NCBI GenBank assembly: GCA_032250895.1
Contig: JAVVEZ010000001.1
Location: 31,831 to 95,830 of the forward strand
Source of the DNA: Pseudomonadales bacterium
GTDB taxonomy: Bacteria; Pseudomonadota; Gammaproteobacteria; Pseudomonadales; Pseudohongiellaceae
Reading direction: 5' to 3'
Length of the DNA stretch: 64,000 bases
In this document: one piece after another, positions 5,095 through 60,900 of the stretch
Position numbering within the stretch: the first letter of the stretch is position 1
How the letters are laid out: every line of letters starts with the position of its first letter
Position numbers and translations under genes: made by a program
Notes under the pieces: generated by a model
Database searches by the model: none
Seen by the model: only the letters and a program-made list of their open reading frames with translations
Told to the model about the DNA's origin: nothing

Positions 5095-7941
5095 ATGCAG
5101 GACAACCTCAGGGAAATAATGTTACGAAGTGGACATATTTCCGGCAGCAATCTGGACTATGTGGAGGGACTCTACGACGCCTATCTGAGCGATCCCAAAT
5201 CAGTCTCTGAGGAATGGCGCCGGTATTTTGCCGGGTTGCCACTCGTCAACGGTGGTCTACCCGAAGTTTCCCATGCAAGAATTGTCGAACAGTTCAAGGG
5301 CTTGCCGAAAAGGGGAATGACCAACCTGGGCCAAAGTGTCCCCAACAGCAAGTTGCCTGGCAGCCTGGAACATGAAGCCAAACAGGTCAATGTCGTACAA
5401 CTGATCAGTTCCTATCGGGTGCGTGGGCATCAACATGCCAATCTCGATCCGCTGGGCCTGATGCCCCGTGAAAATGTGCCTGATCTGGAACTTGAGTTCC
5501 ATCACCTGTCGGAAGCGGACCGCTCGACCATGTTCAGGACTCAGCCGCTTTTCATCCCGCAGAAAGCGGCACCGCTGGCGGAAATCATCTCTATCCTGGA
5601 GGATGTTTATTGTAATTCCATCGGCTATGAATACACCGGTATCGTTGATCTTTCGCAGAAACACTGGATACAGCGGCGAATTGAAAGCATCGGTGGCAAG
5701 CCGATTTTTTCGATGGCTACCCGCTTGCATATTCTTGAACGGCTGAGTGCGGCGGAAGGCCTGGAAAAACACCTGGACGGTAAATACCCAGGCACCAAGC
5801 GCTTTGGCCTCGAGGGTGGCGAAAGCCTGATCCATGCACTGGATGACATCATTCAACGTGCTGGTGAGCAGGGTACCAAGGAGATAGTCATTGGCATGGC
5901 CCACAGAGGGCGCCTGAATGTTCTGGTGAATACGCTGGGCAAGAATCCATCACAGTTGTTCGATGAATTTGAAGGACGGGCCAAGTACCTGAATTCAGGT
6001 GATGTGAAATATCACCAGGGTTTTTCCTCCAATGTCATGACGCCGGGTGGCGAAGTTCATTGCAGCATGGCCTTCAATCCGTCTCATCTGGAGATCGTAA
6101 CGCCGGTGATAGAAGGTTCCGTCAGAGCCAGGCAGGATCGCCGTAACGATCAGAGCGGTGAAACCGTGTTGCCAATTGCCATACATGGAGACGCGGCTTT
6201 CGCCGGGCAGGGGGTGGTCATGGAAACCCTGCAAATGTCGCAGACCAGGGCTTATAGCACGGGTGGAACGGTTCATATTGTCATCAACAATCAGGTTGGT
6301 TTTACCACCAGCCGTCAGGATGACTCCCGTTCCACGGAATACTGTACCGATGTGGCAAAAATGGTGCAATCGCCTATTTTTCACGTCAATGGAGATGATC
6401 CGGAAGCGGTTCTGTTTGTTACCCAACTGGCCCTGGACTTCCGGAATGAGTTCCGCAAAGACGTTGTGGTGGATCTTATCTGCTATCGGCGCAGAGGTCA
6501 CAATGAAACCGATGAACCGGCCTCTACGCAACCGTTGATGTACAGAACCATCCGTGCCCTGAAGACCACCCGAACTCTTTATGCCGAAAAATTGATATCG
6601 GAAGGCCTGATCAGTGAGCAACAGGCTGAAGACATGAACAAGAGTTACCGCAAGGCACTTGATGAAGGCACTCATGTGGTGAAAAGCCTGGTGCATGAAC
6701 CGAATACCGCCTTGTTTGTTGACTGGCGTCCCTATCTCGGGCACGACTGGACCATGCCCTGTGATACGACTGTGCATCTTGATCATCTGAAGAAACTGGC
6801 GGAAAAGCTGGTGGAATTGCCACCTGGCTTTACTGTAAACCGGCAGGTTGCCAGAGTTCTGGAGGATCGCGGCCGGATGGCCAGAGGTGAATTGTTGGTG
6901 GATTGGGGCTGTGCCGAGTTGCTGGCCTATGCCAGCCTGGTGGACAATAACTATCAGATACGTCTGACCGGGCAGGATGTGGGACGTGGCACTTTCTCAC
7001 ACAGGCACGCCGTGCTGCATGACCAGGAAAGCGGCGAGACCTTTGTTCCGCTGCAGACGCTGTCGCAAGCGCGCACCTTCGTCATCTACGATTCGATCCT
7101 CTCCGAAGAAGCGGTGCTGGCATTCGAATACGGTTATGCCACGACCCGGCCTGATGCCCTGGTGATCTGGGAAGCCCAGTTTGGCGATTTCGCCAATGGC
7201 GCCCAGGTGGTCATAGACCAGTTTTTGACCAGTGGCGAATACAAGTGGGAACGCCTGTGTGGTCTGACCTTGCTGTTGCCTCATGGTTACGAGGGGCAGG
7301 GGCCTGAACATTCTTCGGCGCGTCTGGAACGCTTCCTGCAATTGTGTGCGGAGAAAAACATTCAGGTCTGTATCCCCACCACACCTGCCCAGGTTTTCCA
7401 TATGCTGCGGCGCCAGATCATCCGGCCCCTGCGAAAACCGCTGATTGTCATGTCGCCCAAAAGTCTGTTGCGGCACAAAGAGGCGGTATCTTCACTGGAA
7501 GAACTGGCGCATGGTTCTTTTTGCAATGTGTTGCCGGAGACGGACGAGCTTGTACCTAAGAAAGTCAAACGCATGGTTCTGTGCAGCGGCAAGGTTTACT
7601 ATGAACTGCGCGCCAAACGGCGGGAAGAAAATATCACGGATATTGCCATTGTCCGTCTTGAGCAATTGTATCCTTTTCCCGAAAACGAACTGGCAGAGGT
7701 ACTGGCCCCCTATACGGGCCTCAGGGATGTGGTCTGGTGTCAGGAAGAACCCCAGAATCAGGGAGCCTGGTATTCCAGCCAGCACCATATGCGCAACGTG
7801 ATTACCCAGTTCAATCCGCGCCTGATGCTGACCTATGCCGGCAGGGAGGCTTCTGCGTCTCCGGCGGCCGGGTATGCGGCTCTGCATATGGCCCAGCAGG
7901 AAAAATTGATCGGAGAGGCCTTGGCTCTGGATAAACGCTGA
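5095..7941 (+). CDS. sucA: 2-oxoglutarate dehydrogenase E1 component
   Basis: 948 aa, full-length colinear with SucA (e.g. [62 protein letters not shown]). Confidence 0.97.
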
Positions 7942-50867: not shown

Positions 50868-51165
50868 GCCGTGCCATACCATCGGTTCATATGTTGCGAA
50901 TGACATCCATGTCTACGCCAATAAGAATCGAAATGATATCAATATAATATCAAAAACCCGTGGCTGGTAAGCTGGAATGATTGATCAGTTGAGATGTGTA
51001 TCACAAGCTGAAAAAAATTCAATAGCTTGATGGCGTATATTTCACTTAAATAGACCACCGGCAGCCTTTACGACGACAAACGTTGTTTTCCTTAGCCATA
51101 TTGGCGTAATTATGGAACCGATAAGATGTAATAGCCAGGTAAAAAAGAAAAAAAACGATCAGGGA

Positions 51166-52356
51166 ATGGTGATGAAAAAGATACTGACAATAGTGCTTGC
51201 ACTGTGCATTGCGGATGGCGGAATCAGTGCCCGGGAAGATATCCCCACCCCTTTGCCGGATGGCACCAATGTCATTCTGTTCGGCATGGGCGAATACGAG
51301 AACCTGGGAGAGAGCATTTATATTGGTGCGGTTTATCTGGCGTTGCTGGATGTGAATATTCTGCCGGGTACTTCCAAACGCATGGAAATGAGAATCGTCA
51401 CCGATAATCTGTCCGCGCGCCGGTTCACCCAGCTATGGGTAGATGCGATAACCCTCAGTAGCAGCCGTGAGGAAAGAAATGCCCAGGCCGATCAGATACA
51501 GCAGTTTGGCCGGCTTTTCCAGGACAGTCTGGTTCGCGGTGACCGGGTAAGCTTCGATTATCTGGCATCACGTGAGCAGACAGTGGTATTGCTCGATGAG
51601 GTGCCGCTTGGTGAGATTCCCGGTGCGGATTTCTACCATATATTGCTCAATGCCTGGATTGGTGACATACCGTTGAGCGGGCAACTGAAGGCGGGCCTTC
51701 TGAAGCAGGTGACACCGGAAAAAACAAGCCATACCGAGGAGCTTTTTGCCGATCTTGTCTTTTCATCGGAGCGGCATCATGCGGTTATGAGTCGTTATTC
51801 CGTTGCGTCCGGACAGAAGCACTCAGCGCTGGGGCTCAAGTCCCTGGAAGACGATGGCAAGAAAGAAGCCGAACGACTGGCTGAAGAAGCGCGGCTGGCG
51901 GCACTCGAAGGGCAGCGGCAGAAAGAACTGGCGGAGCGGGCCAGGATTGCCGCAGCAGAGAAAGCCGCGCGCATTGAAGCGGAGCGTCTGGCCAGAATTG
52001 CTGAAGAAGAGAGACTGGCGCGAGAGAAGGCTGAAGAAGAGCGGGCACGCTTTGAAGAAGAACAGGAACAGCTGATTTTTGCCTATCGGGAAACCCTGGT
52101 GCGCTGGTTGAGCGAATATCTTGAGTACCCGCAACGGGCCGTTGACCGGGGTCAGACCGGCCGGGTTGAGCTGTCTGTCGTCAGCAATCGCAAGGGTGAA
52201 ATAATCGCTGAGAGTATCGTCAGCAGTTCAGGCAATTCCATGCTGGATCGGGCGGCACTGAGAATGCTGGAGCGTGGCAAACCCCTGCCTGAAATGCCGG
52301 AAGCGCTGGTCGGCGAAACCTTTACGTTCATTATGCCGGTAAATTTTTACTTGTAA
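51166..52356 (+). CDS. Secreted or anchored TonB_C-domain protein with an N-terminal globular domain (chalcone-isomerase-like?) and a TolA-like Glu/Arg/Ala-rich coiled coil
   Basis: ATG 51166/51172 (MVMKKILTIVLALCIADGGISA). Coil: EAERLAEEARLAALEGQRQKELAERARIAAAEKAARIEAERLARIAEEERLAREKAEEERARFEEEQ. TonB_C: YPQRAVDRGQTGRVELSVVSNRKGEII...RGKPLPEMP. Confidence 0.6.
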   Translation: MVMKKILTIVLALCIADGGISAREDIPTPLPDGTNVILFGMGEYENLGESIYIGAVYLALLDVNILPGTSKRMEMRIVTDNLSARRFTQLWVDAITLSSSREERNAQADQIQQFGRLFQDSLVRGDRVSFDYLASREQTVVLLDEVPLGEIPGADFYHILLNAWIGDIPLSGQLKAGLLKQVTPEKTSHTEELFADLVFSSERHHAVMSRYSVASGQKHSALGLKSLEDDGKKEAERLAEEARLAALEGQRQKELAERARIAAAEKAARIEAERLARIAEEERLAREKAEEERARFEEEQEQLIFAYRETLVRWLSEYLEYPQRAVDRGQTGRVELSVVSNRKGEIIAESIVSSSGNSMLDRAALRMLERGKPLPEMPEALVGETFTFIMPVNFYL

Positions 52357-52414: not shown

Positions 52415-54157
52415 GTGCAGGACACAGTAGCAATGGAAACGAAAATATCACCGATGAAGCTGTTGATACTGGATACGGCTGAAAATACGACAGAAGCATT
52501 CATCAGCCTGCTGAACAAACAAGGCATAGCCACTAGTTGTGAACGCATCAGTGACAGGAATAGTCTGTTCGAATCGCTGAATAGCCGACAGTGGGATATT
52601 TTGCTGTTGAATCAGGACGCTGAGGATGTTACGGCCTGCATAAACTTCATCAGAAAAAATGCAACGAATACGGCGGTAATCATGTTGACTCCAGATGCCT
52701 TTGATATTCAGCAGCTCACAGACGCTGCCCGCAAGGGGCTGGCTGGAATGGTCTCTCTGGAATGCAGGGACTACTCGATCAATACCATGGTGAAGGAATT
52801 CAGCATTGTCCGGGAAAGACGCAAACAGTTGCGACTCGAGCAGGAAACCCGGGAGTTGATGGCGCGTTGTCAGTTGCTGCTCAGCAGTTCGAGAGATGCC
52901 ATTGCCTATATACATGATGGTATGCATATCTATGCCAATGATTCCTATCTGAAGCTGTTTGGTTATAGTGATATGGATGATCTACTCAGCATCCCATTTA
53001 TCGACATGATTGAGCCAGGCGACAGACAGGAATTGAAAGTCGCATTGACGAATATCCAACGCAGAAAGCGGGAAAACGGCGCAGATGAGGAAAAAGTGCT
53101 GACAGCGACGGCGCTCGATGCCAGCCAGCAGGGCTTCCCGGCCCGGCTCGTACTGAAACCCACCTTGTATGAAGGGGAACGCTGCCTGCAGTTGCTGATC
53201 GCCAGGCAGCTGAAAAGCAGGCCTGTGCTTGCCAGGCCGGGGCAGGACATGGAAGGGGATACGGATACAGATGTGGTTGTCGGCGAAACGCCGGTCCTGC
53301 CTTCAGAGACGATCATTGCATCGCTGGACACAAACAAACGCAGGAAAAGGGATGTGGAAAGTCCTGTAGCCAAAACAGTTTTGACAAAAGAAGCTGTCAG
53401 TACGGCCCTGGCAGGCAAGCAAATCACGCTGGTCTATCAGCCGGTCATCTCTACCGCCGACATTGAACCGGAATTTTATGAGGTTGAGCTCAGAATTTAT
53501 GGTCAGAACAGGGAAACATACACGCTACAAGACTTCCCGGGGCCTATCAATGACACTGCCATTGGTCAGAAAACCGACCAGTGGGCCATTGCCCAGGCAC
53601 TGAAAGTAATGGCTGAACGCTACAAGCAGGGACAGGCTCTGCAGTTTCTGCTGACGCTTACGGCCCAGACTATCCGCGACCGGAATTTTTCCGGGTGGTT
53701 GTCAAGCGCAATGTCAGGCAGGCAGCTCGGCGGGCATGCGCTGATTCTGAATATGCGCGAGGCGGATGTACTTGCCAACAGGGAAGCGGGCAGGGCACTG
53801 ATCGGGAAGCTGCAAGAATTCGGTATCGAGGTGTGCATCAGCGATTACAGCCATGGTGAGGCGATAAGCAGTCTGCTGCATGGCTGTCGGACAGCTTTTG
53901 TGCGGCTGGCCGCTCCACTCAGCGAAAAAGCGATGCAGGATGGTGCCGGCCTGCTCAGTCTGCAGACCATCATTGACGTCCTGCACGCCGACAAAACCAA
54001 GGCCATAGCCCTTGATGTCGCCACTCCCGAGAAGCTGGGGACCCTGTGGAAAGCCGGCGTGGATCTGGTGCAGGGTAGTTATTTCCAGCATGAGGTGCAG
54101 GAACTCGATGCCAGCTCGTTCTCGGAACAGATCGACGTGCTGCGAAATGTAATTTAG
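52415..54157 (+). CDS. Degenerate REC - PAS - degenerate EAL protein (FimX-like, without a GGDEF domain)
   Basis: 580 aa. REC-like N-terminus with Asn at the phospho-acceptor position (WDILLLNQ). PAS block (RDAIAYIHDGMHIYANDSYLKLFGYS). EAL fold (LVYQPVIS...) with EVELR in place of EALLR, and SDYS in place of DDFG. Confidence 0.7.
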   Translation: MQDTVAMETKISPMKLLILDTAENTTEAFISLLNKQGIATSCERISDRNSLFESLNSRQWDILLLNQDAEDVTACINFIRKNATNTAVIMLTPDAFDIQQLTDAARKGLAGMVSLECRDYSINTMVKEFSIVRERRKQLRLEQETRELMARCQLLLSSSRDAIAYIHDGMHIYANDSYLKLFGYSDMDDLLSIPFIDMIEPGDRQELKVALTNIQRRKRENGADEEKVLTATALDASQQGFPARLVLKPTLYEGERCLQLLIARQLKSRPVLARPGQDMEGDTDTDVVVGETPVLPSETIIASLDTNKRRKRDVESPVAKTVLTKEAVSTALAGKQITLVYQPVISTADIEPEFYEVELRIYGQNRETYTLQDFPGPINDTAIGQKTDQWAIAQALKVMAERYKQGQALQFLLTLTAQTIRDRNFSGWLSSAMSGRQLGGHALILNMREADVLANREAGRALIGKLQEFGIEVCISDYSHGEAISSLLHGCRTAFVRLAAPLSEKAMQDGAGLLSLQTIIDVLHADKTKAIALDVATPEKLGTLWKAGVDLVQGSYFQHEVQELDASSFSEQIDVLRNVI

Positions 54158-54258
54158 CAGGCTGTTGAAAAACAGCCTGCCAGCCCGGGCCATGAATGGA
54201 CTTTTTCAACAAACTGTCAGGCACGAATCGTTGCCAATTGTCAGCAGGATGAACAGGT

Positions 54259-54672
54259 ATGGAAGAAACAGATATGAGTGAACTGAGAGTCATGGTGATA
54301 GATGACAGTAACACCATACGCAGAACCGCCGAAGCCTTGCTGAAGAAAACCGGTTGCACGGTAATCACGGCAGAGGATGGATTTGATGCACTGGCCAAGA
54401 TCGTCGCCACCAGGCCGGATATTATTTTTATTGATGTCATGATGCCGAGGCTCAATGGCTATGAGACCTGCTCGATTATCCGCAGCAACAAGACATTCGA
54501 GAATGTTCCGCTGGTACTGTTGTCAAGCAAGTCAAGTTTCTGCGACAAGGCCAGGGGAGCGGTGGTCGGTGCCAACAGCTATCTGACCAAGCCCTTCAGC
54601 AAGGATGAGCTGCTTGGTGCGATAAGCAAACACACCGGTAATGCTGACAATGTCATGGCAGTGAGCATCTGA
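54259..54672 (+). CDS. pilG: Twitching-motility CheY-like response regulator PilG
   Basis: 137 aa. Near-colinear with Pseudomonas PilG as I recall it (LRVMVIDDSNTIRRTAEALLKKTGC.VITAEDGFDALAKI...MMPRLNGYETC...YLTKPFSKDELLGAI). Confidence 0.92.
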   Translation: MEETDMSELRVMVIDDSNTIRRTAEALLKKTGCTVITAEDGFDALAKIVATRPDIIFIDVMMPRLNGYETCSIIRSNKTFENVPLVLLSSKSSFCDKARGAVVGANSYLTKPFSKDELLGAISKHTGNADNVMAVSI

Positions 54673-54723
54673 CCCGCTGTGCTCATGAAGGCCAGTGGGG
54701 CGGACAATAAAAAAGAGGCAGAT

Positions 54724-55092
54724 ATGAAAAAACTGAAAGTGCTGATCGTGGATGATTCGGCAGAAGACACCAGAAAAGCCGCATTGCTACTGAAAAATGC
54801 CGGTCATGCGGTGATCGTTGCCAGCAATGGCATGGAAGGTGTGGCGATGGCAAAACAGCAGTTGCCGGATCTGATTCTGATGGACATCGTCATGCCCGGC
54901 CTGAACGGTTTTCAGGCCACCCGGCAACTGAGCCATGATGAGGTCACGAGAAACATTCCGGTGATAGTGGTCAGCGGCAAGGATCAGGAAACAGACAAGG
55001 TGTGGGCAATGCGACAGGGCGCAAAGGCCTATTTGACCAAAACCATCGAGAAAAAAATCTTGCTTGATACCATTGGAGATCTCATGTCATGA
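54724..55092 (+). CDS. pilH: CheY-like response regulator PilH
   Basis: ATG 54724 (MKKLKVLIVDDS...) within ORF 54679-55092. Has LMDIVMPGLNGFQATRQL, KDQETDKVWAMRQGAKAYLTKT. Confidence 0.9.
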   Translation: MKKLKVLIVDDSAEDTRKAALLLKNAGHAVIVASNGMEGVAMAKQQLPDLILMDIVMPGLNGFQATRQLSHDEVTRNIPVIVVSGKDQETDKVWAMRQGAKAYLTKTIEKKILLDTIGDLMS

Positions 55093-55673
55093 GCGCCATA
55101 TCCGGGATAAGCAACAATGCCTTTGAACAATTGTGGAATCTGGAGGAACGGGTTCGTCTCAGTAGCGCCTCATTGCCGAAGACAGTCGATACCCGCGAAC
55201 AGTGGTCAGGAGTGATGTGTCATATCGCCGGCAAAGATTTTATTGTGCCCTTGTCTGCCATCTCTGAAATTCTGGAACAGAAAGCTGTAACTTTTGTCCC
55301 TGCTTGCGCTGACTGGTTAAAGGGTTTGCTGAATCTGCGTGGGCGTTTATTGCCGATATTCGATGTCAGTGAATTCCTCGGGACTGATGACGGCAAAAGC
55401 AGTTCGTATCAGGTGATGGTTGTTGAGAAGGACAGCGTTTTTTGTGGCATTGCAGTAGAAAGGATAGATGGCATGCAGAAGTTCTATCAGGATGATTTCA
55501 ATGCACTGGATTCATGCCATGAAGCCGAGGTCGGGCCGGTCAGAGAGTTTGTCAGCCTGGTGACAGAAATGGAAGAAAAAATCTGGTATCAGCTGGATAT
55601 ATTCAGACTGGCATCACGCATCAGTCAGACCAGTCCAGCTTCTGTTGCAGACAACACAGACGTGGCAGCCTGA
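55089..55673 (+). CDS. pilI: CheW-like coupling protein PilI
   Basis: 194 aa. ATGA overlap with pilH. CheW fold blocks (FIVPLSAISEILE, LLNLRGRLLPIFDV). Confidence 0.85.
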   Translation: MSAISGISNNAFEQLWNLEERVRLSSASLPKTVDTREQWSGVMCHIAGKDFIVPLSAISEILEQKAVTFVPACADWLKGLLNLRGRLLPIFDVSEFLGTDDGKSSSYQVMVVEKDSVFCGIAVERIDGMQKFYQDDFNALDSCHEAEVGPVREFVSLVTEMEEKIWYQLDIFRLASRISQTSPASVADNTDVAA

Positions 55674-55741: not shown

Positions 55742-57949
55742 ATGAATACCAAAAGAGATAAAAAGATGGCCAAGCTGAGCAAGCCAAGAACCCGTATTTT
55801 GATGACCCTGTTCGTTGTAGCATTGGCCTTGCTGGTGATAAATCTGGTGTTCGTCAATATTCACTCGGGTGAAGACCAGATCTATATTCAGCGCACTGCG
55901 GACTTGCGGGTGCTGTCGCAGGAGATTCCGCAGCGCGCCGCTGAGGCCATTGCCGGCTCTGATGAAGCCTTCGACCAGTTGTCCCGGGCCAGGAGCGATT
56001 TTGACGCTGCCTGGAATCTGATCATTGACGGTCGGAAGGCCTATGTCGACTCGGGTATCGGGCTGAAAACAAATCTGCCTGGTCGTGGCAACATCATCAC
56101 TCTGCGCCAGCCCGATGCCCAGAATCTGTGGACCCGGATAAGCGGCAACGCAGAACTGGTTCTGGCCAATCGCGAAGGCATTGAAAGTCTGAACGCCATT
56201 ATTACCACGGCTGCTGCCAACATTCCGCAAATGCAGCGCAGCTATGATGAGGTGGTGAATACCTTGTTGGATAACAACGAGTCGCTGGCCACTATCGCCG
56301 TTGCTCAACGCCAGACCTGGCTGTCGGAACGCATTGCGCTGAACCTGAACCGCATTGCTGCAGGTGATGAGCAGGCGCAAGCGGCAGTGGAACAGTTGCA
56401 GCGTGATATCAGTCTGTTCTCGAGCAACCACGAAGCCTTGCTGGAAGGGGATGTTTCAATCGGTATCAACCGGGTCGCGGATAGCGTTGCCCGCGCTGCT
56501 CTGGACAATATTTCCGAGCTGTTCTCGGCGCTTGAAGCCCGGTCCATTGACATTATCGCGGCTGCACCGCAGATATTCAAAGCCACACAGGCCGTGGATG
56601 CCATCGTTAGGGATGCAGAATTATTGCAGGTGGACGTCACAGAACTGTACCAGTTCTTTACTGAAACCAGGGGTCAGCATCTGGCTTCGCCAGTGCTGGC
56701 TTACGGTCTGCTGCTCGGCATCCTGTTCTTGATGGTCCTGTACGGTATCGAAGTGATCAGACAGTCACGTCTGGCGGAAAGAATGGCCGGCACAGAGAAC
56801 CAGAAGAAAAACAACGCGGTGATGAACCTGCTGGAGGAAATTTCCGATCTGGCGGAAGGTGATCTGAGCGTTGAGGCCACGGTCAGTGAAGATTTTACCG
56901 GTGCGATTGCCGACTCCATCAACTACGCCGTGGGTCAGTTGCGGGAACTGGTGTCGGCAATTATCGAGGTATCTGTGCAGGTCAGCGAATCCACCCGTTC
57001 CTCCGAACGTACTGCCAGGCACTTGTCGGATGCATCTGAGCGGCAGACCAGCAATATCAGCTCGGTGTCCGAATCCATCCGCGAAATGGAACAGAACATC
57101 AACCGTGTATCGGCCAACGCGATCCGATCACTGGATGTGGCACGCAATTCGGTCGATATTGCCTCAGGGGGTGCCGAGGTGGTGAAAAATACCATCCAGG
57201 GCATGGATATCATTCGTGGGCAGATCCAGGAAACCGCCAAACGCATCAAAAGACTGGGGGAAAGCTCGCAGGAAATTGGTGGATTCGTGTCGCTGATCAA
57301 TGACATTGCCGACCATACCAACACGCTGTCACTGAATGCCGCCATTCAGGCCGCGATGGCGGGCGAGGCCGGCAAGGGTTTTGGTGTGGTTGCCGACGAG
57401 GTGCACGCGCTGGCGGAGCGTTCAAGGGATGCCACCCGTCAGATCGAAAGTCTGGTGAAGGTGATTCAGCGCGATATCACCGAGGCGGTATCCTCGATGG
57501 AACAAACCACCACCGAGGTGGTGCAGGGTACCCATCTTGCCCAGGGTGCCGGCTCTGCTCTGGATGACATCGAGAAAGTATCCAGGGAGCTCGCCGCCCT
57601 GGTCGAGGAAATTACCGATGCAGCCCAGAGTCAATCCAGGACCGCGTCTGAAATTACCGGATCAATGGAAATCATTCAGCAGATCACCACCGAAACCTCA
57701 TCCGGTACCAAGGCTACCAGCGAGTTTATCTTCAACCTCGGCAAGCTTACCGACAGATTGCACAATGCCGTTGCCGGCTTCAGTCTGTCCCCAAAAAACA
57801 GTGAATCAGCGCTGCCTGCCCAGGATGGTGCGGCAGCCGGCAGTACGGATGACGAAGACAGGATGGCGGCTGATGTGGATGTGGTGGTGGCTTATCCGCA
57901 ACAGGACAAAGAGCGCAATTTCAAGGTGAGAGGGATGGCTACAGCCTGA
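55742..57949 (+). CDS. pilJ: Methyl-accepting chemotaxis protein PilJ
   Basis: 735 aa. PilJ-type periplasmic N-terminal domain, HAMP domain and the MCP signalling hairpin (TNTLSLNAAIQAAMAGEAGKGFGVVADEVHALAERS). Confidence 0.92.
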   Translation: MNTKRDKKMAKLSKPRTRILMTLFVVALALLVINLVFVNIHSGEDQIYIQRTADLRVLSQEIPQRAAEAIAGSDEAFDQLSRARSDFDAAWNLIIDGRKAYVDSGIGLKTNLPGRGNIITLRQPDAQNLWTRISGNAELVLANREGIESLNAIITTAAANIPQMQRSYDEVVNTLLDNNESLATIAVAQRQTWLSERIALNLNRIAAGDEQAQAAVEQLQRDISLFSSNHEALLEGDVSIGINRVADSVARAALDNISELFSALEARSIDIIAAAPQIFKATQAVDAIVRDAELLQVDVTELYQFFTETRGQHLASPVLAYGLLLGILFLMVLYGIEVIRQSRLAERMAGTENQKKNNAVMNLLEEISDLAEGDLSVEATVSEDFTGAIADSINYAVGQLRELVSAIIEVSVQVSESTRSSERTARHLSDASERQTSNISSVSESIREMEQNINRVSANAIRSLDVARNSVDIASGGAEVVKNTIQGMDIIRGQIQETAKRIKRLGESSQEIGGFVSLINDIADHTNTLSLNAAIQAAMAGEAGKGFGVVADEVHALAERSRDATRQIESLVKVIQRDITEAVSSMEQTTTEVVQGTHLAQGAGSALDDIEKVSRELAALVEEITDAAQSQSRTASEITGSMEIIQQITTETSSGTKATSEFIFNLGKLTDRLHNAVAGFSLSPKNSESALPAQDGAAAGSTDDEDRMAADVDVVVAYPQQDKERNFKVRGMATA

Positions 57950-60900
57950 TGGAGACCCGTGTGAAGCCATGGCAAAATTTTTATGCCTTCAGTAAGGTAA
58001 AAACCTGCATTGAACACCTTGTGCAGGAAGTGGCAATGACATTTGAAGCCTGTCTGGAGGAAGAACAGGCGGCGCTGATGTCGCCACAGCAGTTCTCACT
58101 GTGCAGCGCCAGGCTCGAACAGATTGCCGGTGTTCTGCGGGTAATGGAATATCAGGAACTGGCCTTGCTGGTGGATGAAATGCTTGGCTTGCTGAAGGAC
58201 TCAGCCAACGCGGCGATGCAGGCAGAACCCGCACGGCTTGTTGAAAGCCGGCAGTTGGTTTTTGTGGCGGCCACGGACTTTCCGGCAATTCTGGAAGGTG
58301 TGTTGTCGGGCCAGATTCAACACTGGTATGAATACAATCAGTTGTTCAATCGGATCCGCAAGGCCAGGAACATGAGCCTGGTGTTCAGCAGTCAGACCTT
58401 GTTGACCAAGCCGCACATCCCGTTCAAGGATAGGTTTGCGACACATCCGCAGCAAATGACGCGGCTGCTGGACCAGCATGTTGCTCATTACAACGAGGCC
58501 AAAACACAGATTCTGCAGAACCGGGATATCCGTCAGGGCATCAATGCCTTCCAGAATATCTTTACCAATCTGGAAGTCATGGGTCGGGATTTTCGACTGT
58601 CCACGTTGTGGGGCTTGTGTGCCACTCTGGCCGAGTCATTGTCAGAAGAACAGATGCGGCACGAGCATCCAGTGCTGAAATTGTTGTGCTCTTTCTCAAC
58701 TGTCATGCAGCGAGTCAGGGATAATGGCGCCAGGGCTCTGAATCAGAATATTCCTGAAGATATTCTGGAGAAAGTGCTGGATGCGCTGACAATGCCCTTG
58801 CATGAAACCAGCCGCTTGCTGGCAGTCAAGTGCTGGTTCAATCTGGACCTGGAACTGGCCAGGGCGCAGCGCCTCAAACAGCAGGACCTGCTGGTCAGTT
58901 TTTCCCGCAAGGATGCCTTCACCAAAACCATCCGTTTGTTGACAGAACGTATAAGCCAGTTGTCTGAACGGATCAACGGGGAGATTGCCGGCACGGATTT
59001 TTCACCGGGGCAGATTGAAGACTGTATTCAGGCACTTGAATCCATTCAGGCATCGATTCGTGTACTGGGCATCATGTCACCGGTGGAACTGATTGAGCAG
59101 TGCCTTGCCTGCGCACCCCGGCAGGCCAAGGTTTCAGACTCACTGTCACGGCAAAGCATTGTGGACTTTCTCAATCAATGCGCACAGATACTCTATCAGT
59201 GCGAACTGAGCCTGCTGAGTCATGCGGAAGAACTGGAAAGAGCCGTCTTTGTTTCCAGGGCCGGAAAGGACGCGGGTATGGCCTTCACCGGCGTCAAACT
59301 GAGCGTTGTACTCGAAGCCATCAAGAATCTTGAACAGGTCGTGATTGCGATCAACAATTATGTGGATGCAGACTACGATGGCAGCAAGCTGTCAGATGCC
59401 ATCAGACAACTCGAGGGTGCGCGTGTGGCGCTGATGGCGGTGCCGCTTGAGAAAGCGGTTGCCTATTGTGCCGGTGCCAGGGAGTTCGTCGAGCATCTTT
59501 TGCCGCATCAGGGGCTTGCAGTCAGGGAACGGGGCGCGGACGCGTCCTTTCATGCCTTTGCCCATTTGATCATCAATACCATTTTATACCTGGAACAGGT
59601 CAGTATCGGCAGAGCCGAAAAATTTGAACGCATCGTGCAGGAGTCCGACAAACTGCTGGAAAGCGTGCAGTCCGCGCTTGCGAATGAACCTGAGCGGCAG
59701 GCAGCGGCGATGGCTGAGGCCGGCAATGTCACTGCCGGATTCTCTGAAGAAGGCCCTGAACAGGATTCTTCTGATGACACAGGGCCTGTCAGTCAGCCTG
59801 AGCCGGACACCACTGTGCTCGAGGGGGATGAAGACATTCAGGCCATCTTTATTGAGGAAGCTGAAGAAATATTGCCCCAGATTCATGACAGCCATGACTT
59901 GCTGTGTCAAAACCTGCATGACGCCGAAGCTCTGGCCGATCTGCGCCGCAGTTATCATACCTTGAAGGGCAGTGGCCGGATGGTTGGTGCGGAGGCCCTT
60001 GCAGCACTGGCCTGGAGTGTCGAGAATCTGCTGAATCATGTGATCGGTGGCGCCGTGGTTCTTGATAACACAGTGCTGGGCGCCCTGCGGCAGGTGCAGG
60101 AGAAACTGCCGTTTCTGGTTGACGGATTCCGGAACAATGAACATGCTGCCGTCGTGGCCGACAGTGTTGCGGCTGAGGTCGCCTGGATGGACAGTTTTGT
60201 GACGGCGAATTCAGTGGCCGAGGCCCCGACAGGGGTGCTTGCAGAAACAGCAGGCACGGCCAGGGAAAAGCCGGCGCTGTACATTGTGACAAAGCAGCAG
60301 GACACAGCCATTGATACGCCGGTGCATGAAAGCGGCGACCTTGAACGGGCGGCTGCGGAAGATGATGTGGCATCGGAGTCTGCCAGCAAGGCCGACGGCG
60401 AGAGTTTGTCCGAGGTGTTTGCCATTGAAACTCAACGGCAGATAGGGCGCATCCGCCAATATCTGGATGATGACCTTGCTGCCGATGCAGAAGAACAGGC
60501 CATCACCACCAGCAGTTATCTTATTCCTGTACACACCTTGTATGGCAATTGCACAGTAGCGGAACTACAGCAATTCGGACATGTCGTGGGTCAGTTGGAG
60601 AGGCTGTTGCAGGACCATCCCTACCGTAAGGTCAACAATAGCCTGAAAATCCTGCTGAGTGAATTTTGTGAAATTTCGGCCCGGGTCACCCATGACATCA
60701 CAGGCACCACTGCCGTGGCATTGACGGATGCACTGCGCCAGGAGCTGGATGAGTTTCTGTCGTCGCTGGCGAGGGTCAGGGATGAATTGTCGGGACATGA
60801 GCCGCCCGATGCCTATGCTGTGGAGATTGATGCAATTGTCTCGACCATGAGCACAGACGCGGATTCCGATAATCATTATGCAGATGCTGACGACTCCCTG

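Follow-up and report, generated by a model that had tools for sequence, protein, structure and literature searches.

A 64,000-nucleotide stretch of DNA from a Pseudomonadales bacterium of the family Pseudohongiellaceae (GenBank assembly GCA_032250895.1, contig JAVVEZ010000001.1, positions 31,831 to 95,830 of the forward strand; hereafter, the window) contains a FimX-like gene at positions 52415-54157, upstream of the genes pilG, pilH, pilI, pilJ and chpA of a Pil-Chp system. We are highly confident that this gene encodes a paralog of the FimX family that is enzymatically dead, lacks the GGDEF domain and is linked to Pil-Chp. Taken together, sequence and gene order also tilt somewhat toward a fuller reading, in which the protein would be a non-enzymatic Pil-Chp adaptor working largely or wholly without input from cyclic diguanylate (c-di-GMP). 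An initial annotation, made without database searches, had taken the same gene for a candidate FimX-like c-di-GMP sensor.

The gene and its domains, all on the plus strand and in window coordinates, are as follows.

52415-54157, plus strand: coding sequence of the FimX-like paralog, 580 aa from a GTG at 52415, more likely 574 aa from an ATG at 52433
52454-52765, plus strand: pseudo-receiver (REC-like) domain, residues 14-117 (AlphaFold2 fold, hhalign)
52766-52885, plus strand: long connecting helix, residues 118-157 (AlphaFold2 secondary structure)
52886-53206, plus strand: PAS domain, residues 158-264 (Pfam PAS, E 8.6e-8; AlphaFold2 PAS fold over 160-264)
53207-53386, plus strand: disordered mixed-charge linker at the place of GGDEF, residues 265-324 (predicted local distance difference test score, pLDDT, below 50 over 268-319)
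53387-54109, plus strand: degenerate EAL domain, residues 325-565 (Pfam EAL, E 2.6e-31; Foldseek)

Residues of the window protein are numbered here from the GTG at 52415, so that the ATG at 52433, six codons in, is M7. This ATG is the likelier start because an entry of the protein collection (P0002, 574 aa) is identical to the window protein over 574 residues from M7, and because the resulting N-terminal length matches that of relatives, which start 9-10 residues before the LLILDT strand. Pfam recognized PAS (residues 153-259) and EAL (326-558) in the protein, and neither GGDEF nor Response_reg at E <= 1. The NCBIfam matches to EAL and PAS were partial and far below threshold, and there was a weak match to PvrR. 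The AlphaFold2 model, built from an 11-sequence alignment, had a mean pLDDT of 77.8; its REC-like, PAS and EAL domains were all confidently folded, with the EAL barrel (325-565) at about 85-93. The PAS domain is the best conserved part of the FimX family (AIAYIHDGMHIYAN motif), with invariant columns at Y165, G169, H171, N175 and Y178. A PAS domain following a receiver-like domain, as first annotated, is what both the Pfam match and the modeled fold give. The proposed check with Pfam profiles of EAL, REC and PAS yielded matches to EAL and PAS but not to Response_reg, and seven catalytic or metal-binding residues scored as replaced.

Several lines of evidence place the protein in the FimX family, taken broadly as the homologs of PA4959 and XAC2398. 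It has an Asp-less REC-like domain, a PAS domain with the AYIHDGMHIYAN motif and an EAL domain. Its best sequence match in the PDB was the EAL domain of Pseudomonas aeruginosa FimX (PaFimX; E ~8e-19); Xanthomonas FimX and DosP ranked lower. The predicted EAL domain superposed on that of PaFimX (3hv8) with a template modeling (TM) score of 0.87 and a root-mean-square deviation of 2.1 A; Foldseek gave TM 0.85-0.87 for FimX EAL structures, a superposition on the Xanthomonas FimX EAL as well, and TM 0.8-0.87 to many EAL structures, i.e., the TIM-barrel-like EAL fold is present. Strong matches in a collection of 5.8 billion proteins were nearly all REC-PAS-GGDEF-EAL proteins of ~690 aa from Marinobacter, Pseudomonas and relatives, and a multiple alignment with these showed homology over the REC-like and PAS parts and again over EAL, with a gap in the window protein at the GGDEF block. 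A HMMER search of 1.84 billion representatives returned 404 sequences at E <= 1e-30, and the best 150 of these 404 were mostly of ~690 aa. The nearest relatives, ranking ahead of canonical FimX, were P0003, P0123-P0133, P0135, P0138 and P0005 (420-820 aa). The PDB match, the EAL superposition and the three-domain alignment thus agree with the first designation of the protein as FimX-like.

The gene is not, however, the fimX of this organism. The genome (3.49 Mb, 153 contigs, 95% complete) encodes a second, full-length FimX on contig 14, which matched Pseudomonas FimX at E 2.4e-106 over residues 7-688:

18390-20444 of contig C14 of genome G000 (1468-3705 of L003), minus strand: canonical FimX of the genome (P0122)

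Since a canonical REC-PAS-GGDEF-EAL FimX is present in the same genome, the window gene is a paralog. P0122 keeps Q461, E475, L477, R479, E568, K616, D618, E654 and Y673 (PaFimX numbering), the complete contact set for c-di-GMP. Its sequence has diverged strongly (terminal branch of 1.9 substitutions per site in the tree), and its longest open reading frame (ORF) begins far upstream at a TTG, leaving the true start uncertain. In a Pseudohongiellaceae metagenome-assembled genome (MAG), too, a pilG-linked copy occurs together with one of the canonical type.

Two unrooted trees, from FastTree (90 rows) and IQ-TREE (52 rows), place the window protein in a clade of 18-19 rows with support 100 in both. 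In the IQ-TREE analysis, 19 rows stood apart from 33 canonical FimX at a Shimodaira-Hasegawa-like approximate likelihood-ratio support of 100. The canonical side holds Pseudomonas, Marinobacter, Xanthomonadales, Moraxellaceae, Beggiatoa, Endozoicomonas and the genome's own second copy. The window protein lies outside this canonical clade, is without the REC-PAS-GGDEF-EAL architecture and is not encoded at a fimW-fimX-serB locus. Identities to the window protein across its clade are 27-45%. Mean pairwise identities are 0.34 in the clade versus 0.33 in canonical FimX for REC, 0.39 versus 0.43 for PAS and 0.31 versus 0.38 for EAL, and the clade has conserved residues of its own (T21, N66, F195, E351, C474 and L551). 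By these comparisons, the EAL domain of the clade is still constrained and is not drifting freely.

Five canonical EAL domains encoded in the same genome served as the reference for judging the EAL domain. In the window protein, E-A/L-L-x-R reads EVELR, N-x-S reads LTLT, E-x-T-E reads NMRE, DDFG reads SDYS, K-x-D reads VRLA and E-G-V-E reads LDVA; YQPV, the Arg (R360) and QG are retained. Every substitution listed in the initial annotation, and each of the three motifs that it gave as kept, was recovered in this alignment. Of the catalytic and metal-binding residues, only E356, R360, E449, D477 and Q553-G554 remain, and the domain is predicted to have a dead catalytic site and to be unable to hydrolyze c-di-GMP.

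The residues by which PaFimX contacts c-di-GMP are L477 and R479 (phosphates) and H533, F652, E654 and Y673 (bases), and Acinetobacter baylyi FimX, which is changed at all six, showed no c-di-GMP binding by isothermal titration calorimetry (Ellison et al., PMC12139848). These positions were mapped by a HMMER alignment to 3hv8/3hv9 and by two independent MAFFT alignments. The corresponding residues of the window protein are E358, R360, T414, D534, A536 and S555, i.e., five of the six named contacts are replaced and only R479 (R360) is kept; the change of Tyr to Ser at Y673 is the same in the window protein and in A. baylyi FimX. K616 of PaFimX is replaced as well, by R497. The full canonical set (Q461, E475, L477, R479, H/N533, K616, E654 and Y673) is accordingly incomplete in the window protein, whose EAL domain, by alignment, has lost most of the residues by which FimX holds c-di-GMP. 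A census of 33 canonical FimX and 19 clade sequences showed how far this extends. Residues kept, in canonical FimX and in the clade, respectively, were Q461 (33/33 and 6/19), E475 (29/33 and 4/19, with Asp in 14), R479 (33/33 and 6/19), E568 (31/33 and 6/19), K616 (30/33 and 4/19, with Arg in 14), E654 (30/33 and 0/19), Q671 (33/33 and 11/19) and Y673 (19/33 and 0/19). Because the contact positions are not conserved across the clade, c-di-GMP binding of the FimX type is doubtful as the job of this clade, and the same holds for the sensor role that the initial annotation had assigned to the window protein.

Residues 14-117 were modeled as a (beta-alpha)5 receiver fold (pLDDT about 80-88). A profile of the clade's N-terminal region was aligned by hhalign with the PilG and PilH receivers of the window and of related clusters; the alignment ran end-to-end in register over 105 columns, at E 0.0046 with a probability of only 7.6%. 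In this register the phospho-acceptor Asp is matched by N66 (of WDILLLN), the acidic pair by D20-T21 and the conserved Thr/Ser by T92, and the end of beta5 has no Lys. Model and alignment thus give a receiver fold with Asn for the phospho-acceptor Asp and with the acidic pair and the conserved Lys gone, as had been read from the sequence at first, and the pseudo-receiver is predicted to be non-phosphorylatable. Of 17 clade members, 13 have N66; no sequence of the canonical FimX set has it. An Asp-less receiver as such is normal for all FimX proteins (PMC11656802); in our residue census, too, it extended across the whole family and was not peculiar to the window protein.

Where canonical FimX has its GGDEF domain, the window protein has a linker of 60-62 residues (265-324) with 10 acidic and 9 basic residues, predicted to be disordered. 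The distance from the PAS end to the EAL start is 62 residues, versus a median of 194 in canonical FimX. The linker had been described as charged and about 80 aa long; the charge, of mixed sign, was borne out, but the length was not. No GGDEF similarity was found in it by Pfam (E <= 1), blastp-short or phmmer, in agreement with the initial annotation's statement that the domain is missing. When residues 256-330 were compared with eight GGDEF-bearing relatives (blastp-short, phmmer), no E value was better than 0.09, and the only match was of 4 residues, VLAR. A possible GGDEF relic, VLARPGQD, which MAFFT set under the LARxGDD strand of FimX, was judged an alignment artifact.

Full-length proteins without GGDEF make up 16 of 159 family sequences and have 31-91 residues at its place; seven belong to the pilG-linked clade and nine are scattered through canonical clades, and the FastTree topology implies at least five to six independent losses. 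Some members of the pilG-linked clade keep a segment of GGDEF length (190-295 residues), in which Pfam still recognizes GGDEF in P0005 and not in the L103 protein, and a subclade of seven that includes the window protein has 32-78 residues there. A Marinobacter-type protein without GGDEF, P0010 (L032 1315-2991), has the canonical gene context (radical-SAM / fimX / serB) and, among the positions tabulated, keeps E475, R479, K616, E654 and Y673; further such variants in canonical clades are P0147, P0178, P0195, P0212, P0214, P0255, P0261 and P0265. Because REC-PAS-EAL variants occur inside canonical clades too, the domain has been lost repeatedly, and its loss is not unusual in the FimX family.

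The genes around the FimX-like gene in the window are the following.

51112-52356, plus strand: gene with Chalcone_3, coiled-coil and TonB_C regions (Pfam), upstream and co-directional
54155-54182, plus strand: hairpin with a 12-bp stem over the stop codon of the FimX-like gene, no adjacent T-run
54259-54672, plus strand: pilG, single-domain response regulator (Pfam Response_reg, E 3.7e-26; 84% identical to the PilG of L001)
54679-55092, plus strand: pilH, single-domain response regulator (Pfam Response_reg, E 7.5e-24)
55089-55673, plus strand: pilI, CheW-like (Pfam CheW, E 1.2e-22)
55742-57949, plus strand: pilJ, methyl-accepting chemotaxis protein with a PilJ N-terminal domain (Pfam MCPsignal, PilJ), the sole PilJ of the genome
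57949-63711, plus strand: chpA, 1920 aa (ORF list), beginning at the pilJ stop codon, without pilK between

The equivalents of chpA in relatives have Hpt, HATPase_c, CheW, REC and FimL-like domains. Five lineages of the clade have readable gene context and together span most major subclades: the window, L001 (P0003), L002 (P0005), a JGI contig (P0006) and L103, which is the Pseudohongiellaceae MAG. In all five, pilG-pilH-pilI-pilJ-chpA follow immediately after the FimX-like gene and on its strand. Over these lineages, the position next to pilG that was first noted in the window is no one-off. In the window, the gap to pilG is 101 bp and includes the hairpin; in the four relatives it is 13-49 bp. 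Two TARA/ENA contigs (L154 and L155) show the same pilG linkage; because their identities to the window proteins equal those of L002, they were taken as the L002 lineage and not as a new one.

The PilJ proteins of L001, L002 and L103 are 74, 64 and 50% identical to that of the window, versus 42-44% in ordinary clusters of the same order; for PilG, the values are 84, 74 and 65% versus 62-65%. Since the PilJ proteins of these clusters resemble one another more than they resemble ordinary ones, the data fit co-inheritance of the FimX-like gene with its Pil-Chp lineage. Canonical FimX has the context fimW-fimX-serB, and no FimX-like gene was present upstream of pilG in the three ordinary Pil-Chp clusters examined from other families of the same order. 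Two of these three (G045 and G042) have a divergent gshB-like gene and a TonB_C protein upstream of pilG. In the clade, the Chalcone_3 gene is upstream in all five lineages (the same gene in L001 and L002) and is fused to TonB_C in three; it adjoins the FimX-like gene except in L103, where DUF3833 and glyoxalase-like ORFs intervene.

Some details of these loci may be recorded here. A TonB_C protein neighbors pilG in both types of cluster (window 51112-52356; L151 4927-5859; L153 4955-5863). That of the ordinary clusters is of ~300 aa and is encoded after the gshB-like gene on the opposite strand, and it has in common with the window protein of 51112-52356 a TonB_C part of ~55 aa only, at about 35% identity. 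The hairpin at 54155-54182 has the perfect stem GCAGGCTGTT-GAAA-AACAGCCTGC without a direct T-run; it could be a partial terminator or a structure that stabilizes the mRNA in the interval before pilG. No pilK (CheR) gene separates pilJ from chpA in any of the five lineages; chpA comes next after pilJ, and in the window its start overlaps with the stop codon of pilJ (57946-57952). In L103 (6944-9419, CBFIIQ010000011.1) a frameshift near 7872-7918 splits the FimX-like gene into two overlapping ORFs (324 and 515 aa); it is either an assembly error or the mark of a gene broken recently.

The pilG-linked clade is rare. A scan of metagenome contigs with a clade-specific DNA pattern returned only the two contigs L154 and L155 named above. 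The pattern AY[LIV]H.GMH, which is shared with canonical FimX, was searched in species-representative genomes, and among the 80 loci listed 79 were canonical FimX and one was a clade member (L103). When 400 genomes of the window's order were searched with a clade profile and two candidates were scored per genome, the window genome alone had two FimX-like matches; the E values of this profile do not separate the branches because canonical FimX also scores high.

Searches with full-length PilJ found an ortholog in none of 24 genomes of the window's family, a same-genus genome (89% complete) included, and in 15 of the 16 other families of the order. The PilJ N-terminal domain PF13675 had been considered as a Pil-Chp marker and was too weak, with 30 bits on the window's own PilJ. 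Positions 1-27.2 kb of the window are syntenic with the same-genus genome (G001) at 69-80% DNA identity. Within 20-40 kb the matches end at ~27.2 kb, and 44-64 kb has no DNA match in that genome (40-44 kb was not queried). The synteny over 1-27.2 kb rules out that the contig (C28 of G000) was mis-binned. Given the missing same-genus match and the lack of PilJ in these 24 genomes, the block of TonB-like gene, FimX-like gene and pilGHIJ-chpA looks like part of the flexible genome. This block, whose right boundary lies beyond the contig, was probably acquired horizontally; alternatively, it looks like a lineage-specific retention.

Among characterized proteins, PaFimX (PA4959; 3hv8, 3hv9, 4afy, 4j40) is the best match to the window protein in EAL sequence and a close one in fold, and shares with it the Asp-less REC-like domain, the conserved PAS domain and a non-catalytic EAL domain with E-V-x-x-R. 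The window protein differs in that it has no GGDEF domain, belongs to another clade, is linked to pilG and not to fimW-fimX-serB, has lost the contacts L477, H533, F652, E654, Y673 and K616, and coexists with a canonical FimX in one genome. FimX of Xanthomonas citri and X. campestris (XAC2398; 4f3h, 4foj, 7lkq) regulates type IV pili, has a canonical EAL motif and a GGDEF domain, binds c-di-GMP and docks on PilZ-PilB. It resembles the window protein in family, EAL sequence (E 1e-9 to 3.5e-8) and fold, and differs from it in its EAL motif, c-di-GMP binding, PilZ-PilB docking and GGDEF domain; the Xanthomonadales in the tree (Luteimonas, Stenotrophomonas and Rhodanobacter, not Xanthomonas) fall in the canonical clade. 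FimX proteins at the canonical locus that lack GGDEF, such as P0010, have the same layout of REC, PAS, short linker (31-91 aa) and EAL, but they nest in canonical clades and keep the five residues given above, and P0010 is not at pilG. RocR and PvrR of P. aeruginosa likewise have an N-terminal receiver fold followed by EAL, with weak profile and fold matches to the window protein. They are, however, phosphorylatable active phosphodiesterases without PAS, whereas the window protein has neither the acceptor Asp nor the catalytic residues.

FimX has been tied to type IV pili and to Pil-Chp before. In P. aeruginosa this tie to Pil-Chp runs via PilG (PMC8325320): PilG is needed to bring FimX and PilB to the leading pole and promotes their polarization, with PilH acting in opposition (PMC8325320; reviewed in PMC12632253). 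Mutations that suppress the deletion of fimX have been mapped to Pil-Chp (PMC12533971). FimX of A. baylyi (ACIAD2209; Ellison et al. 2025 preprint, PMC12139848) acts in Pil-Chp, binds ChpA directly, co-localizes with Pil-Chp proteins and positions pili without c-di-GMP, which it does not bind. Like the window protein, it has lost c-di-GMP contacts of the EAL domain, including Y673 to Ser, and at five of the six PaFimX positions the window protein has undergone a loss of this type. Unlike the window protein, which is linked to Pil-Chp by its genes alone, A. baylyi FimX keeps a degenerate GGDEF-like domain and has lost R479, which the window protein keeps; it is also taken not to be pilG-adjacent, although PMC12139848 does not state the adjacency. 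Our literature search found no paper on a pilG-linked FimX-like gene or branch. To that extent the linkage of such a gene to the Chp genes is undescribed, as first annotated, although a functional link between FimX and Pil-Chp was already known; only the genetic hard-wiring of a FimX-like gene to Pil-Chp is new here.

In the mechanism that we propose, the window protein would be a member of an as yet unnamed FimX sister branch, encoded just upstream of pilG in one Pil-Chp lineage, and its disordered linker would be the remnant site of a lost degenerate GGDEF domain. As an adaptor, it would link ChpA, phosphorylated PilG or both to the machinery of pilus extension, acting on where that machinery is placed or on its activation; the canonical FimX encoded on contig 14 would still serve as the c-di-GMP receptor. 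An adaptor is the simplest reading because FimX acts with Pil-Chp in P. aeruginosa and A. baylyi and because the gene appears to be co-inherited with pilGHIJ-chpA. We infer the adaptor role, its output, the lack of c-di-GMP binding and the partner, which may be ChpA, PilG or PilB.

Several points weigh against this proposal. For the whole clade, the adaptor role is deduced from sequence and locus data, and the synteny that enters into it comes from five lineages only. The 101 bp and the hairpin separate the window gene from pilG, so that co-transcription with pilG is not implied. Four Moraxellaceae MAG FimX, included as Acinetobacter-type proxies in place of A. baylyi FimX itself, fall in the canonical clade, i.e., the tree does not give the window protein and the Moraxellaceae FimX lineage a common descent; because these proxies are not phylogenetically close to the window protein, the A. 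baylyi parallel is an analogy only. The root of the tree is unset, and the clade may either be sister to canonical FimX or have branched off from it and evolved fast. Finally, the window protein is among the more conservative members of the clade and keeps Q342, E356, R360, E449, Q553 and G554, which correspond to Q461, E475, R479, E568, Q671 and G672 of PaFimX. Since Q342, E356, R360 and E449 are kept, the window protein may bind c-di-GMP weakly or in an altered manner.

This last point leads to the reading of the protein as a minimal FimX that would still be a c-di-GMP receptor, signaling through its degenerate EAL domain directly to the neighboring Pil-Chp proteins. Non-catalytic EAL receptors are an established class, and the window protein retains the Gln of YQPV, the Glu and Arg of E-x-x-x-R, E449 and QG. 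Its EAL domain is predicted with high confidence to have a fold that matches the c-di-GMP-bound EAL structures of FimX and LapD, and in the clade this domain is under purifying constraint. We nonetheless regard a receptor as rather unlikely: five of the six PaFimX contacts are replaced, a Glu stands in place of L477 beside the phosphate-binding Arg, E654 and Y673 are kept in none of the 19 clade members and R479 and Q461 in six each, and a canonical FimX with an intact site is present in the same genome. The adaptor reading may also be carried further. The FimX-like protein could belong to the core of a separate Pil-Chp subtype and be dedicated to it. Its pseudo-receiver, with the conserved Asn, would dock on the phosphotransfer domains of ChpA or on phosphorylated PilG and tune phosphoflow or polarity, and would so take over a feedback role in clusters that have no pilK between pilJ and chpA. 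In that case FimX would ancestrally be a Pil-Chp output or adaptor protein, with c-di-GMP sensing arising later in one branch. This extension is speculative, and we give it little weight.

Erosion of every enzymatic and ligand motif, deletion of GGDEF and the frameshift that splits the L103 member are what might be expected of a decaying fimX duplicate without function, kept by chance or through polarity on pilG expression. Decay is nevertheless very improbable, given uninterrupted ORFs of comparable length in distant lineages of the clade (27-45% identity to the window protein), the preserved position upstream of pilG, domain-wise identities in the clade close to those of canonical FimX, the clade's own conserved residues and the confident predicted folding of all three domains. 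There is scarcely any chance that the protein is an active REC-EAL phosphodiesterase of the RocR/PvrR type that lowers c-di-GMP locally at the Pil-Chp complex. The Pfam EAL match well above threshold, the weak NCBIfam match to PvrR and the Foldseek matches to RocR point that way, but, judged by the five canonical EAL domains, metal- and water-activating residues are gone (T414 for N, N446 for E, S476 for D, R497 for K, A499 for D, and L533 and A536 for the Glu pair of E-G-V-E), and we reject this reading on those residues; moreover, the receiver has no acceptor Asp, and the nearest relatives are non-catalytic FimX proteins.

How the Pil-Chp signal is handed over to the pilus extension motor, i.e., the physical link between them, is unclear (PMC8325320, PMC12139848, PMC12533971). 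The carriers of the clade are uncultivated, marine-type gammaproteobacteria, and the clade is both rare and known from its sequences alone. Within these limits, the pilG-linked FimX-like branch is independent genomic evidence for FimX-type proteins as components of Pil-Chp. Its members are natural minimal variants, in which the GGDEF domain and the c-di-GMP pocket would be dispensable, and the parts that they keep, i.e., the PAS motif, the pseudo-receiver and the EAL scaffold, could guide the mapping of interactions in model organisms.

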